DNA of 13,572 nt. Source: a virus (lineage: Duplodnaviria > Heunggongvirae > Uroviricota > Caudoviricetes). Positions 7,985-12,861 of the stretch are shown here, piece by piece (positions within the stretch are counted from its first letter, which is position 1; every line of letters begins with the position of its first letter). The stretch lies in the IMG/VR virus record IMGVR_UViG_2703719354_000003. One strand, given 5' to 3'. The translations under genes and the position numbers were made by a program. Under the pieces are notes generated by a model that saw nothing but the letters and a program-made list of their open reading frames with translations, was not told where the DNA came from and did not search any database.

Positions 7985-8170
7985 GCGGATCCACCGGCAG
8001 GCATTGCAGGTCCTGTTGTTGTACCGATGCCGACGGATATTTCCGCATCGGATACAGCGCACCGGATATCTCAGTCTGAAGGTTAACCGTCGCTGGCGGC
8101 TGTTATCGAAAGACGACGGCCGGAACTGGGAAGTAATGAGTCATGAACGTTATTCGGGAGAAATAAAGAA

Positions 8171-8563
8171 ATGATCGACAACCGCACCGCCAGCACCATT
8201 GACCAGGCATTACAGAAACATGATACACCCGTCGGCCCGTTATTTTTTGTAACACGCCACGGAAGAACAAAAAAATGCCTCACCCGAAAAACGGCAATTC
8301 GTTACCTGGCATTCTTTATGACCACCCGCGCTTTTGAACGTTCAGGATTCCGACAACGCTATCCTGACAAGCGTTTTATCTTCAACAGGAATGAGATATG
8401 GAAACGTGGAGAATCAACCACAGAGTATACCCGCGCACACCAGCGAACAATCAGACGACTGCGCAGACTCATCGCCAGGAAACAGTATACAGAAAAATGG
8501 TTCAGAAAATATGACACATGGAGCGCCGGATATTACGAACTGATGGCAACAAAACCATTCTGA
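8171..8563 (+). CDS. Hypothetical basic protein (130 aa)
   Basis: Arg/Lys-rich ORF in the operon orientation; GGGAG about 10 nt upstream of the ATG; function unknown. Confidence 0.45.
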   Translation: MIDNRTASTIDQALQKHDTPVGPLFFVTRHGRTKKCLTRKTAIRYLAFFMTTRAFERSGFRQRYPDKRFIFNRNEIWKRGESTTEYTRAHQRTIRRLRRLIARKQYTEKWFRKYDTWSAGYYELMATKPF

Positions 8564-8623
8564 CGTAAACGAAATTAACCATGACGCAATTAAATAAGGC
8601 AAGCCGAATACATCAGGAGGACC

Positions 8624-8812
8624 ATGAACATTTATTTCAGAATAGTTATATCACTGGCAATTATCACATGTATTTACGGATTAATCGTTCCGGCCCTCAT
8701 ATCAATGAAGGATACGGTAGCAGTGATTTCTGGCTTTGCTCTGGCGTGTCTGACCCCGCCCTGCATTTATGCCATTTATAAGGGTCTTTCTTTTTCTAAG
8801 GATAAAAGATGA
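8624..8812 (+). CDS. Small membrane protein (62 aa, two predicted hydrophobic helices)
   Basis: Two hydrophobic stretches (IVISLAIITCIYGLIVPALI and VAVISGFALACLTPPCIYAIY); GGAGG just upstream of the ATG (short 3-nt spacer); stop overlaps the start of the SPFH gene (ATGA at 8809-8812). Confidence 0.55.
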   Translation: MNIYFRIVISLAIITCIYGLIVPALISMKDTVAVISGFALACLTPPCIYAIYKGLSFSKDKR

Positions 8813-9636
8813 AAAAATTACTTTTTGCTTTAGCCCTTGTTCTGCCGACCATTGGCCTTGTCGGTTGCGATCGCGTTGAGCCTGGTAATGTGGGCATCAA
8901 AGTAAACAAACTGGGCGACGATAAAGGCGTCGGTGAAGTGGTCGGTGTTGGGCGCTACTGGACGGGATGGAACACTGAGGTTTACATCTTCCCGACCTTT
9001 AAGCAGATGAAGACCTACGATGATCCATTCAGTTTCCAGATGAGTGACGGTACAACCATCGGCTATCACATCGGCGTGGCCTACAAAGTTGATCCATCCA
9101 AAGTTACCACAGTCTTTCAGACCTACCGCAAAGGCGTGGACGACATTACCGACACCGACCTGCGCCAGAAGATAGCCGACGCACTCAACCGACTGGCCAG
9201 CAAAATGACCACCGACAAATTTATCGACGGCGGCAAGTCTGAGCTGCTGGATGCAGCTCTTAAAGACATTCAGGAAGAAATGACGCCCATCGGTATTCAG
9301 GTAATGAGCCTCTCATATGTGGGTAAGCCGGAGTACCCACCTACTGTTATCGACAGCATTAATGCCAAAGTCACGGCGAACCAGAAAACCCTGCAACGCG
9401 AGCAGGAAGTAAAACAGCGCGAAGCGGAAGCCAACATGTTGCGCGCGGAAGCTGCCGGACAGGCAGATGCGATTCGCACAAAAGCCCAGGCCGAAGCCGA
9501 TGCTATTCGTTTACGCGGTGAAGCTCTGCGCCAGAACCCCGGTGTTATGGAGCTGGAAGCCATCAACAAGTGGAACGGTACACTGCCGCAATACATGACC
9601 AGCGGTGCCAACACACCATTTATTCAGGTTAAGTAA
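8809..9636 (+). CDS. SPFH/band-7 (stomatin/prohibitin/HflK-C-like) domain lipoprotein
   Basis: Signal peptide with lipobox LVGC (Cys 20); SPFH-like core followed by an Ala/Glu/Arg/Gln-rich coiled-coil (QREQEVKQREAEANMLRAEAAGQADAIRTKAQAEADAIRLRGEALRQNP) typical of HflK/C and stomatin-like proteins. Confidence 0.75.
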   Translation: MKKLLFALALVLPTIGLVGCDRVEPGNVGIKVNKLGDDKGVGEVVGVGRYWTGWNTEVYIFPTFKQMKTYDDPFSFQMSDGTTIGYHIGVAYKVDPSKVTTVFQTYRKGVDDITDTDLRQKIADALNRLASKMTTDKFIDGGKSELLDAALKDIQEEMTPIGIQVMSLSYVGKPEYPPTVIDSINAKVTANQKTLQREQEVKQREAEANMLRAEAAGQADAIRTKAQAEADAIRLRGEALRQNPGVMELEAINKWNGTLPQYMTSGANTPFIQVK

Positions 9637-9679
9637 TACATATGCCCGGTATTACACGCCGGGCTGTCTGGAGATAAAA

Positions 9680-10429
9680 ATGAATATTGTAACCATCAAC
9701 AACAAACAGTTTCCGGTAATCGAATATCGCGGTCAGCGTGTTGTGACATTTGCAATAATTGATGACGTCCACCAGCGCCCGGAAGGTACCGCCCGTGCTG
9801 CGTTTAACCGCAACCGTTCTCACTTTATCGAAGGGGTGGATTTTCTTGAAATGACTGCGGACGTAATACGTACGGAGTCACTTTCTGATGCCTTTGCCGC
9901 GCGAACTGCCAAAGGGATCATTCTTTTCGAGTCTGGTTACCTGATGTTGACGAAGCCTTTTAACGATGCTCTTGCATGGCAGGTTCAGCGCGAACTGGTT
10001 AACAGCTATTTCCGAACTCACGCGCCGCTGACGGAAATGGAGATGATCGCTGCAATGGCCGCCGATGCCGTTCGCCAGCAGAAGCGCCTGAGTCATGTTG
10101 AAGAGAAGATCGAAACGGTCACCAAAGCTGTGGAGAACATCAAACGCGGCACAATGCGCACCGGATATGTCGGTTACCGCCAGGTGGTAGCCAAAAGCGG
10201 AATGAGTGACGCCAAGTGTCGGAATCTGGTCAACGCCTACCACATCCCTACCGACACGCACGAATTTATGACTCCGGACGGTCTGTTGTCTCGCAGGGCT
10301 GTCGTCGAGCTTGAGACATTTATGGCGGCGTTCCACCAAATGATGTCAGAGGCTGAACCACGCGGCACACGCTGGTATCACCCGAAGATGGGGCTTTTTC
10401 AGGTAATCGGATGGGAGGATAAAGCATGA
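9680..10429 (+). CDS. KilA-N/ORF6N-domain protein (phage antirepressor-like)
   Basis: N-terminal MNIVTINNKQFPVIEYRGQRVVTFAIIDDV...GYLMLTKPFNDALAWQVQRELVNSYF resembles KilA-N/ORF6N domains of phage antirepressor or Rha-like proteins; GGAG 6 nt upstream of ATG 9680 (the ORF-track start 9605 is an in-frame upstream GTG). Confidence 0.6.
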   Translation: MNIVTINNKQFPVIEYRGQRVVTFAIIDDVHQRPEGTARAAFNRNRSHFIEGVDFLEMTADVIRTESLSDAFAARTAKGIILFESGYLMLTKPFNDALAWQVQRELVNSYFRTHAPLTEMEMIAAMAADAVRQQKRLSHVEEKIETVTKAVENIKRGTMRTGYVGYRQVVAKSGMSDAKCRNLVNAYHIPTDTHEFMTPDGLLSRRAVVELETFMAAFHQMMSEAEPRGTRWYHPKMGLFQVIGWEDKA

Positions 10430-10994
10430 TCATCCAGTCAAAACTTATTCGCGCCGCTCTGGTGTGCGCTGCTAAAAACGACGTTCGTTATTACCTGAAC
10501 GGTCTTCACATCACGCCAAAACATATTGAGGCAACCAATGGTTTCGTAGCACTGCGCATGACTCACGGCATCCGGACGAAGAAAAACATCATTGTCCAGT
10601 TCGAAGGTGGCGTCCCGGCCAAAGCCGAAACGACAGAGCTGATTTTTAGTAAAGAGCCGATCCTGTTCATCGCGACCAGTTTCAGCGCCGGCTGTCCATT
10701 ACCGGCATTAAATTGGTGGACGGTTGTTTTCCGGATTTGGAACGCATCATTCCGAAAAAATTTGACCTCTGTACACACCCGGTGATCCAGGCGGGTTACC
10801 TGAGTTATCCAGAGAAGATGTTTGGTCGTGAGCGTAAATTTATTCCCGTCCAGTTACGTTCCTCCGGTGACGGGCAAGCGGTCAGAATTCAGTTTGATTC
10901 CATCATCAACTCAATGTATGGCAATCCTGAATTTGTTGTGATGCCTTGTCGTGATCATGGCGATTTCAATGTGGCTCAGGAGCATCCGGAATGA
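10426..10994 (+). pseudogene. DnaN (DNA polymerase III beta sliding clamp) domain II-III homologue, interrupted by a frameshift near 10687-10697
   Basis: Frame 1 (10426-10785) encodes ...AKNDVRYYLNGLHI...ATNGFVALRM..., matching the E. coli DnaN domain II start (QDVRYYLNGM...ATDGHRLAV); frame 0 (to 10994) encodes ...RLSITGIKLVDGCFPDLERIIPKK...EFVVMPCRD, matching DnaN FIFTSKLVDGRFPDYRRVLPK and the C-terminal AYVVMPMRL. Homology continues across the frame change, so the two ORFs are one disrupted gene. Confidence 0.6.
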
Positions 10995-11518: not shown

Positions 11519-11728
11519 ATGGGGCTGGATTGCGTGCCTATATCAACCTACTGCCGCGACGCGGGAGAAACGGTTGATGCCGTTAACAAACGGATACAAA
11601 GAGGAATATGGAAAGAAGGGGTTCATGTATTAAAAGTCGACGGAGTTAAAGAACGCTGGGTCGACTTAATAGAGGTTTCAAAATGGGCAAGAAAGAACAA
11701 GGATTATTATCTCTGCCAAGAGGAGTAA
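11519..11728 (+). CDS. Excisionase-like small protein (assigned by position upstream of and overlapping int)
   Basis: 69-aa basic protein immediately upstream of and overlapping the integrase gene, the typical xis-int arrangement; sequence resemblance to excisionases is only tentative. Confidence 0.45.
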   Translation: MGLDCVPISTYCRDAGETVDAVNKRIQRGIWKEGVHVLKVDGVKERWVDLIEVSKWARKNKDYYLCQEE

Positions 11729-12861
11729 CTATTCGTAAGCATAAAACTGCTTCAACACTAGTTATCACTTTCACATATAAAGGGGTTCTTTGCAGGGAGC
11801 CCCTGTCTCGGCTTGAGGCAAATACACGTGGTATTAAATATGCTGAGCGCCTGCTAGGGGAGATACAAAATCAGATCGCCAGCGGAACGTTTGAATATGC
11901 GAAATATTTCCCCAGTTCCAAAAAACTGGAGTTATTCGGTGTAGTAAAGAAAACCAAAAATATTAAGTCCTATCTTGATGAATACCTGAAAATTTGCATG
12001 AACCGCAATCTGTCGCCGTCAACCATTGGCGGTTACGAAAAATGTCTATCAGCACTATCAGAACTACATAAACTACATGTAACAGAATTGACGCCTGCGG
12101 TACTAAAAAATTGGATAGCCAGCCGAAAAACTAAGCTGAAAACAATCAGGAATAACCTGTCATTTCTGCGCAGCGCCATTGATGAGGCTGTAACTGATGG
12201 CCTGTTGACTATTAACCCGGTAACTCTTGTCAGCGCCAGCCGGTATCACGTGGTCGACAGTAAACCGAACGCCGACGATTACGAAGTTGATCCGTTTGCG
12301 CCTGCGGAAACCAGTGCCATATATCAGCACTGCAAGTATCAGGAATGGCAGAATCTGTTCCGCTTCGCCTTCAATACAGGGCTACGCAGCTCTGAGCTAT
12401 GCGCATTACGTTGGACCGATATCGACTTTATAGGTAATACAGCGCACATACAGGCGGCCAGTGTCGTAGGGGTACTTAAAGGCACCAAGACAAAAGCCGG
12501 TACCCGTAAGGTGGAGCTGAACAGTGAGGCGCTGGCGGCCCTGCAGGCGCAGAAGCAATACACCTTTATGAAAAGTGAGTTCATATTCAGCGATCCGAAA
12601 ACGGGAGATCCCTGGACGAACGCCGACGCTATCCGTAAAAAAGCATGGGTGCCGACCCTGAAAAAAGCTGGTGTGCGCTACCGTAACCCGTACCAGACGC
12701 GCCACACATTCGCCACCAGACACATTAGCCAGGGTGTAAACCTTTTCTGGCTTGCCGGGCAGATGGGGCATAAGGGGCCGGAAATGCTGTTCCGCAATTA
12801 CGGTAAATACCTGGCTGAATACGACGGGAAAACCGCAATGGAATCTGGAATGAAGAAGTGA
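11683..12861 (+). CDS. int: Tyrosine recombinase / phage integrase (lambda-Int family)
   Basis: C-terminal catalytic signature: R in NTGLRSSELCALRW, H-x-x-R in RHTFATRHI, and the nucleophile Tyr in HKGPEMLFRNYGKY; N-terminal arm-type region; 392 aa. Confidence 0.9.
   Translation: MGKKEQGLLSLPRGVTIRKHKTASTLVITFTYKGVLCREPLSRLEANTRGIKYAERLLGEIQNQIASGTFEYAKYFPSSKKLELFGVVKKTKNIKSYLDEYLKICMNRNLSPSTIGGYEKCLSALSELHKLHVTELTPAVLKNWIASRKTKLKTIRNNLSFLRSAIDEAVTDGLLTINPVTLVSASRYHVVDSKPNADDYEVDPFAPAETSAIYQHCKYQEWQNLFRFAFNTGLRSSELCALRWTDIDFIGNTAHIQAASVVGVLKGTKTKAGTRKVELNSEALAALQAQKQYTFMKSEFIFSDPKTGDPWTNADAIRKKAWVPTLKKAGVRYRNPYQTRHTFATRHISQGVNLFWLAGQMGHKGPEMLFRNYGKYLAEYDGKTAMESGMKK

Follow-up and report, generated by a model that had tools for sequence, protein, structure and literature searches.

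We analysed a pair of overlapping genes in a 13,572-nt stretch of tailed-phage DNA (the window; IMG/VR virus record IMGVR_UViG_2703719354_000003), which represents a lambdoid, phiP27-like Escherichia coli prophage. The pair region lies between the cI/cro-type immunity region and the integrase gene, following the RefSeq layout of E. coli E110019. The first gene encodes a protein of 62 amino acids (aa) with two transmembrane (TM) segments, and the second a 275-aa lipoprotein with an SPFH/Band 7 domain. The two genes constitute a conserved two-gene module, and the pair is very strongly linked. The features of the pair are as follows.

8615–8620, + strand: Shine-Dalgarno sequence AGGAGG of the small gene, 3 nt 5' of its ATG; sequence CAGGAGGACCATG
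8624–8812, + strand: gene for the 62-aa two-TM, predicted inner-membrane partner (phrog_1130, E = 1.5e-23; RefSeq WP_001028879.1 in E110019)
8690–8716, + strand: family-defining motif P-A-L-I-S-M-K-D-T, codons 23–31, at the end of the first TM segment (TM1) and in the predicted periplasmic loop
8798–8802, + strand: ribosome-binding site AAGGA of the SPFH gene, 6 nt 5' of its ATG, within the end of the small gene
8809–8812, + strand: ATGA start/stop overlap, the small-gene stop codon lying over the SPFH start codon; translational coupling
8809–9636, + strand: gene for the 275-aa SPFH/Band 7 lipoprotein (phrog_200, E = 9.7e-115; annotated by RefSeq in E110019)
8809–8868, + strand: lipoprotein signal peptide, residues 1–19, with an MKK n-region, an h-region and the lipobox L17-V-G-C20
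8869–8871, + strand: Asp21, the +2 residue, directly after the lipobox Cys
8872–9432, + strand: Band_7/SPFH domain, residues 22–208 (Pfam PF01145; 107.9 bits against a cut-off of 23.6)
9340–9534, + strand: 65-residue alanine/glutamate-rich helix, residues 178–242, the equivalent of the coiled-coil wall in SPFH cages
9568–9588, + strand: C-terminal signature K-W-N-G-T-L-P, residues 254–260, likely an oligomer cap or contact element

The two open reading frames (ORFs) and their ATGA coupling had been proposed in an earlier sequence-only reading of this DNA and were confirmed by the sequence. The assignment of the larger product to the SPFH/band-7 family was borne out as well (Pfam Band_7, E = 8e-31), as were its lipobox, L-V-G-C20 followed by Asp21, and its long alanine/glutamate-rich C-terminal helix, which AlphaFold places at residues 178–242. 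The AlphaFold monomer (predicted local distance difference test score, pLDDT, 92.5) comprises a beta/alpha SPFH core (residues 20–175), the long helix, a short helix (residues 244–254) and a flexible C-terminal tail of low pLDDT. Among 75 diverse relatives with a mean identity of 35%, W255 and G257 of the C-terminal signature were invariant, and both P260 and the lipobox Cys were conserved in at least 90%. According to the model, every element of a cage-forming SPFH subunit is present in the large protein, namely the core, a helix of ~95 Å and the conserved tail, while a lipoprotein signal peptide takes the place of the TM anchor.

Foldseek searches against the PDB retrieved all cage-forming SPFH proteins of characterised structure, with a probability of 1.00 and at 14–18% sequence identity: HflK/C (7vhq, E ~5e-14), prohibitin, erlin, stomatin, flotillin, the QmcA-YbbJ complex (8z5g) and the shoulder of MVP, with similar scores for HflK/C, prohibitin, erlin and stomatin. 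The best sequence relative among solved structures was HflK, although the match was weak (E = 2e-4, residues 114–240). The NCBIfam equivalog models for hflK (TIGR01933, 23.4 bits against a cut-off of 159.4) and hflC (TIGR01932, 25.4 against 134.4) were matched, together with a marginal match to FloT, all of them below threshold. The 275-aa protein is a bona fide SPFH scaffold subunit; it is not an orthologue of HflK or HflC, because the scores lie far under the cut-offs, because a single SPFH gene is present rather than a K/C pair, and because a lipid anchor is used instead of a TM segment. The label "(putative) serine protease" is widespread in GenBank for the SPFH member. Pfam gives Band_7 only and no protease domain in the 275-aa protein, and the label is probably a legacy of the NfeD/stomatin-protease literature.

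The smaller protein has two hydrophobic segments (residues ~7–26 and 32–52) and a basic C-terminus, in agreement with the two-helix membrane protein of the sequence-only reading. The mean number of Lys and Arg residues in 20 family members was 1.3 in the N-terminal tail, 0.5 in the loop and 3.85 in the C-terminal tail. This distribution obeys the positive-inside rule, and the protein is predicted to form a hairpin with both termini inside (N-in/C-in) and the motif loop in the periplasm. Diverse partners share the motif G-x3-P-x-[LM]-[IV]-S-[AS]-x-[SD]-T and a Gly early in the second TM segment (TM2); in 20 of them P23 was invariant, and S27 and G37 were at least 90% conserved. The phage partners are only 16–34% identical to the window protein, yet they align readily. 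Both genes are real and under purifying selection relative to phiP27, with a ratio of nonsynonymous to synonymous change (pN/pS) of 0.35 in the small gene and of 0.04 in the SPFH gene. An alternative-frame ORF at 8581–8781, which overlaps the small gene, was not conserved.

The 62-aa partner had no match in Pfam, in the PDB (searched with the partner profile), in PADLOC or in NCBIfam. NfeD was not among the 25 families listed of the 36 Pfam families that 20 diverse partners matched at E ≤ 1, and the partner profile retrieved only chance TM matches from the PDB, with no NfeD or YbbJ chain. Kinship with T4 Imm was ruled out by a score of ~0 bits for the hidden Markov model (HMM) of the partner family. 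A holin or antiholin function for the two-TM protein seems unlikely: the prophage has a lysis cassette of its own, and a weak holin-family match (E = 0.038) was obtained for only 1 of the 20 partners. The partner gene is unannotated in phiP27 (L002, 5006–5194), RCS47 (L004, 3731–3967) and Pokken (L094, 1296–1508).

The partner lies directly 5' of the SPFH gene, or overlaps it, in the window and in phages phiP27, P88 (gp11), RCS47, N4 (gp19), Maja, CKB-S1, Pokken and ORM_20. The phage partners are two-TM ORFs of 54–80 aa that usually overlap the SPFH start by 4–20 nt; in phages 4MG (gp235) and TL (gp10), one gene intervenes between partner and SPFH gene. Loci of the SPFH gene were collected by a species-level genome scan with a query set of 10 sequences, and a partner HMM built from 20 sequences was run over 63 such loci of 8.8 kb each, one genome per GTDB species. 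The partner was detected in 43 of the 63 loci, of which 39 had a gap of -14 to +12 nt, 2 were fused and 2 were split by an IS1-like element; the 4-nt ATGA overlap recurred in 12 other species-level loci. No comparable match to the partner HMM occurred elsewhere in the 63 loci. The sequence-only reading had named a separable, non-conserved pair as the outcome that would speak against it; the linkage in these loci and the natural fusions show a conserved pair instead. No third gene conserved across lineages was found beside the pair, and nothing downstream was conserved beyond the genus level.

In-frame fusions of 330–390 aa make up approximately 19 of the 150 best 50%-identity representatives; in these, the two-TM partner module is followed by a basic linker, a signal-like third TM segment with a lipobox Cys, and the SPFH domain (e.g. 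P0151, P0157, P0159, P0163 and P0169; L121 and L125). AlphaFold models one such fusion as a helical hairpin (residues 2–27 and 32–52) that is followed by a third helix and then by the SPFH domain. The fusions contain an internal Met ahead of the third helix (MARSVRSK... in P0169), at which separate initiation of the lipoprotein could also occur. The phage-like metagenomic contig that carries P0169 has a gene with an Acb2/Tad1-hairpin domain two positions upstream (L096, 218–520). This domain belongs to a family of anti-CBASS/anti-Thoeris sponges, and the module there thus lies in an anti-defence or accessory early region. On Shigella flexneri and E. coli chromosomes (L098 and L099, ~3230–4000), an element of ~770 bp sits exactly at the junction of partner and SPFH gene and breaks the coupling; we read it as IS1-like from its InsA/InsB-like ORFs on the opposite strand.

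The two members of the pair differ in their rate of divergence. The mature SPFH core (8869–9594) shows 86–91% DNA identity among lambdoid, P2-like (P88, L003) and P1-like (RCS47, L004) phages. In the same comparison, DNA identity was 46–50% for the partner gene and 52–64% for the signal peptide, which are essentially unalignable, and the boundary falls sharply at the signal-peptide cleavage site. This mosaic boundary reflects either module exchange or fast evolution of the partner and the signal peptide.

The SPFH family comprises 3008 clusters at 50% identity (E ≤ 1e-3), 227 of them at E ≤ 1e-30, and its members are mostly 270–300 aa long and align end to end. A tblastn search detected an SPFH homologue in 423 of 50,697 phage records, in full length in 387. 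The carriers include N4-like Schitoviridae, Bruynoghevirus, rV5-like Vequintavirinae, FelixO1-like phiEa21-4, phiCbK-like Caulobacter phages, Lak megaphages, a crAss-like virus, jumbo phages and haloarchaeal tailed viruses, the last with a more distant, single-TM SPFH homologue. Most of these phage groups are strictly virulent. The module was found in the virulent phages N4 (gp19/gp20), rV5-like 4MG, Bruynoghevirus TL, the Schitoviridae phage Pokken, the crAss-like IAS virus and phiCbK-like phages, and the partner accompanies the SPFH gene in lambdoid, P2-like, P1-like, N4-like, rV5-like and Bruynoghevirus phages. Copies in virulent phages adjoin genes for DNA polymerase, thymidylate synthase or other early functions (CKB-S1, Pokken, ORM_20, phiEa21-4, N4 and TL).

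The module is not exclusively viral. Six Leptospira species (L132, L136, L137, L142, L151 and L158) carry a chromosomal pair with a genus-specific gene for a 156-aa putative lipoprotein downstream. In the one Leptospira locus checked, the neighbours encode an Sdh/Frd flavoprotein, an EAL-domain protein and a beta-lactamase-fold protein; these housekeeping-type neighbours suggest a stable cellular version of the module. Two further phage neighbourhoods were recorded. In the Vi01-like phage PhiSH19, a "superinfection exclusion protein" encoded beside the SPFH gene is soluble and unrelated to the partner, and the SPFH protein itself belongs to a more distant lipoprotein subfamily that lacks the KWxGxLP tail. 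In Caulobacter phage CcrSwift (L090, 2657–3825), an RtcB-like gene lies two genes 3' of the band 7 lipoprotein gene. The SPFH protein PaFlo8 of Pseudomonas aeruginosa PA14 is embedded in an rtc RNA-repair locus (PMC13086221), and the resemblance between the two neighbourhoods may be coincidence.

Near-identical copies of the pair number in the hundreds, that of the window among them, and the two genes had previously been annotated and catalogued. The 1141 bases around the pair are 99.9% identical to chromosomes such as that of E. coli E110019, and DNA resembling the pair region is present in 535 of 5426 complete E. coli genomes, on chromosomes (prophages) as well as plasmids (P1-like phage-plasmids). 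The element of the window is found in human E. coli isolates. A scan of IMG/VR with a single protein matched only copies that were 97–100% identical. Upstream of the pair, the following features bear on its expression.

5597–6289, + strand: LexA/cI-like repressor gene, with helix-turn-helix and Peptidase_S24 domains (Pfam)
6308–6325, + strand: strong intrinsic-terminator-like hairpin with a T-run, 3' of the cI-like repressor gene; 7-bp stem with 5 GC pairs, then TTTTTTTTTG
6356–6384, + strand: PL-like sigma-70 promoter candidate TTGACG-17-TATTAT, 10 of 12 matches

The immunity transcript ends at this hairpin, ahead of the early operon. The promoter candidate would drive the early operon that includes the pair, and the genes on the + strand run unbroken from this region to int (11683–12861, + strand). 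A sequence scan of the window found no promoter-like site directly upstream of 8624 and no + strand terminator-like site before 11189. "Early leftward operon", the location given in the sequence-only reading, is therefore a fair label, and the arrangement of repressor, hairpin, promoter candidate and + strand genes supports it. The term "cIII-equivalent", which the same reading used, is to be taken as a positional analogy only.

Several neighbours of the pair were also noted. Directly 3' of it, the + strand encodes an ORF6N-domain protein (9677–10429) that matches anti-repressor PHROGs (phrog_1726, E = 7e-70), and a short GC-rich hairpin without a T-run (~9644–9665) lies between this gene and the SPFH gene. 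The ORFs at 10426–10785 and 10713–10994 (both + strand) overlap in different frames and match the N-terminal and C-terminal halves of phrog_3007, respectively; they look like one gene split by a frameshift, and RefSeq marks the E110019 counterpart as "frameshifted". A 72-aa ORF with a GTG start (7956–8174, + strand) overlaps the end of the ORF at 7769–7984 and bears the RefSeq label "ParE family toxin-like protein".

We consider it likely, with moderate confidence, that the pair acts as one membrane module, in which the SPFH protein, held by its lipid anchor and facing the periplasm, builds a ring or cage on the inner membrane that surrounds the two-TM partner and is made early in lytic growth. 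The 275-aa protein would be exported by Sec and lipidated at Cys20. In E. coli, Asp at position +2 leads to inner-membrane retention under the Lol-avoidance rule; Asp21 would therefore hold the lipoprotein in the outer leaflet of the inner membrane, and the sequence C-D-R, which starts with the lipobox Cys, is present in 90 of ~114 close enterobacterial homologues. By way of the long helix and the KWxGxLP tail, the SPFH protein would oligomerize on the periplasmic face; the resulting ring or cage would be oriented like HflK/C and, like QmcA-YbbJ, have a small membrane partner at 1:1. The 62-aa protein would serve as the membrane-embedded subunit, its amount matched to that of the SPFH protein by translational coupling. 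Its periplasmic loop, P-x-L-I-S-x-x-D-T, may contact the membrane-proximal part of the SPFH domain, and through such a contact the partner could nucleate or line the cage. Transcription from the PL-like early promoter would take place after induction or infection and not in the quiescent lysogen, and the placement of the module in early or middle regions of virulent phages agrees with early-lytic expression. The likely consequence would be that patches of the inner membrane are fenced off or stabilized during lytic growth, with sequestration of a host client in the inner membrane, or protection of the membrane itself, as possible effects.

Several observations weigh against parts of this reading. 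The +2 residue varies across the family (T, S, G, D and others among 50%-identity representatives) and is Tyr in N4 gp20 (C-Y-D); because it is not conserved, inner-membrane retention cannot be generalized to the family. Approximately 20 of the 63 species-level loci lacked a detectable partner, most of them with SPFH relatives of at most 35% identity. The AlphaFold models are monomers and carry no information on contacts between partner and SPFH protein, and no promoter prediction can rule out that the prophage expresses the pair. An SPFH protein of a Pasteurella prophage, a possible member of the same subfamily, has been reported in outer-membrane vesicles (PMC9872710).

The sequence-only reading had suggested that a phage SPFH protein at this position could tune the lysis-lysogeny decision through FtsH, CII and CIII. 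As a general function this is unlikely, given that virulent phages and cellular Leptospira loci also contain the module and that the HflK/HflC model scores fall below their cut-offs; the pair is probably an envelope module of general use and not a lysogeny switch of the lambda kind. In its specific form, the proposal has the phage SPFH protein mimic or replace HflK/C around periplasmic FtsH and so shift the degradation of CII/CIII-like or other substrates, and with it the balance of lysis and lysogeny. In its favour, membrane proteases are frequent partners of SPFH proteins, the window protein is predicted to face the periplasm as HflK/C does, and HflK/C-FtsH complexes are among the top Foldseek matches. 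By sequence, HflK gives the best match to a solved structure; besides the marginal FloT, the only NCBIfam models matched are those of HflC and HflK; the prophage has a match to a CII-like regulator (phrog_4836); and an HflK/C-type role has been speculated for another prophage SPFH protein (PMC4936722). We nevertheless judge this role improbable: the module is common in virulent phages and present in a crAss-like virus, which face no lysogeny decision, as well as in Leptospira, and a distant SPFH homologue occurs in haloarchaeal tailed viruses. Moreover, the HflK/HflC scores are 5–7 times under the cut-offs, the structural similarity to prohibitin, erlin and stomatin is equally strong, and a single lipid-anchored SPFH gene with a dedicated two-TM partner has no counterpart in HflK/C.

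Superinfection exclusion or another anti-phage activity, in which an early envelope complex keeps secondary phages from penetrating the membrane or delivering their DNA, or makes the membrane collapse upon infection, and so guards the infected or lysogenic cell together with what the phage has invested in it, is also unlikely, though less so. Small membrane proteins and lipoproteins made early are the classical agents of exclusion (T4 Imm and Sp, T5 Llp, P22 SieA and HK97 gp15), and the module resides in variable accessory regions; in RCS47 it lies between upl/plp and a tRNA gene near a dnaB-like helicase gene, a locus that presumably corresponds to the tciABC site on the P1 map. The Acb2/Tad1-like neighbour in the metagenomic contig points the same way, and the much faster divergence of partner and signal peptide than of the SPFH core, in DNA identity and in pN/pS, is compatible with an arms race. 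On the other hand, neither of the two proteins, nor any of the seven neighbouring ORFs tested, matched PADLOC-DB v2 models at E ≤ 0.01, and the partner showed no relationship to T4 Imm. Leptospira has stable chromosomal copies with housekeeping neighbours, which do not resemble defence islands, and a cage over membrane patches is not an obvious block to DNA entry. It is very improbable that the protein is a lysogenic-conversion or virulence lipoprotein, expressed from the prophage, that reaches the outer membrane or outer-membrane vesicles (OMVs) and acts on the animal host as a TLR2 agonist. Such a role would resemble that of Pasteurella PM0222, a prophage-encoded HflK/C-like protein that is reported to occur in OMVs and to signal via TLR1/2, and whose deletion reportedly attenuates virulence (PMC9872710), and the element of the window does occur in human isolates. 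However, Asp at +2 predicts inner-membrane retention in E. coli, the gene is part of the repressed early operon and lacks its own promoter-like site, and the presence of the module in virulent environmental phages would be left unexplained. TLR2 is activated by any lipoprotein, so that the phenotype is unspecific, and PM0222 is likened to the window protein by description.

Beyond the membrane module that we favour for the window, we tentatively suggest, as a possibility of well below even probability, a widespread and hitherto undescribed class of phage envelope device that extends from coliphages to crAss-like viruses. It would be an early, lipid-anchored SPFH nanocage that faces the periplasm and is built around a dedicated two-TM subunit, which captures a host inner-membrane machine (e.g. 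FtsH, or a quality-control or transport complex) or seals the membrane against secondary phages, the fast-evolving partner and signal peptide being the determinant of specificity or of an arms race.

SPFH cages, including those of HflK/C, prohibitin, stomatin, flotillin and erlin, are a very active structural topic, while their clients and purpose are unclear. In the literature searched, we found no experiment that assigns a function to a phage SPFH protein or to N4 gp19/gp20, and no mention of a dedicated two-TM partner; phage SPFH proteins have been noted as unexplained or with HflK/C speculation (PMC13239085, PMC4936722). The present analysis newly shows a phage SPFH lipoprotein with a previously unremarked two-TM partner, natural fusions of the two, and their occurrence in temperate phages, virulent phages and some cellular genomes; in complete E. 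coli genomes, a DNA match to the pair region is found in ~10%. Two assumptions are corrected: the "serine protease" annotation is unsupported, and so, as a general rule, is the equation of a prophage SPFH protein with FtsH-based control of lysogeny. The pair offers a compact and genetically tractable system for studying the purpose of SPFH cages, with two small, host-dispensable genes that are present in the model phage N4. Should the module exclude other phages or hijack a host membrane protease, it would represent a new mechanism in phage-host conflict.

Among known systems, both proteins of the window are clear members of the catalogue families phrog_200 ("lipoprotein") and phrog_1130 ("membrane protein"), with relatives in phiP27 (L05), P88 (gp11/gp12) and N4 (gp19/gp20); these families have no assigned function. 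The phage exclusion proteins T4 Imm and Sp, T5 Llp, phi80 Cor and TP-J34 Ltp resemble the pair as small early membrane proteins or lipoproteins of the envelope, but none is an SPFH scaffold, and no sequence relation was found (T4 Imm tested; PADLOC negative). HflK/C has historically been linked to lambda lysogeny. The window protein shares with the HflK/HflC-FtsH system a periplasm-facing inner-membrane SPFH domain (predicted here), a long alanine/glutamate-rich helix and a C-terminal cap region; it differs in having one gene instead of a heteropair, a lipobox instead of an N-terminal TM segment, a two-TM partner of its own, and an occurrence in virulent phages. PM0222 (Pmorf0222) is, like the window protein, an HflK/C-like SPFH protein of a lambda-like prophage, and has been studied only as an OMV-borne TLR1/2 agonist and virulence factor, not for a phage role or a partner gene (PMC9872710).

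The SPFH-NfeD operons (QmcA/YbbK-YbbJ, YqiK-YqiJ, Pyrococcus PH1511-PH1510 and Staphylococcus aureus FloA-NfeD) are similar to the pair in that the SPFH gene is adjacent to, and co-expressed with, a gene for a small integral-membrane partner. The QmcA(YbbK)-YbbJ cage consists of 26 heterodimers (8z5g), and NfeD partners have been proposed to promote SPFH oligomerization (PMC13086221). By contrast, the window partner is a 62-aa, two-TM hairpin only, without the OB-fold of NfeD (PF01957), the window SPFH protein has a lipid anchor and a predicted orientation towards the periplasm, in contrast to the cytoplasm-facing QmcA, and phages carry the module. The most fitting description of the system is a variation on the theme of an SPFH gene in operon with a small membrane partner, one that is lipid-anchored, periplasm-facing, equipped with a non-NfeD partner and spread by phages.

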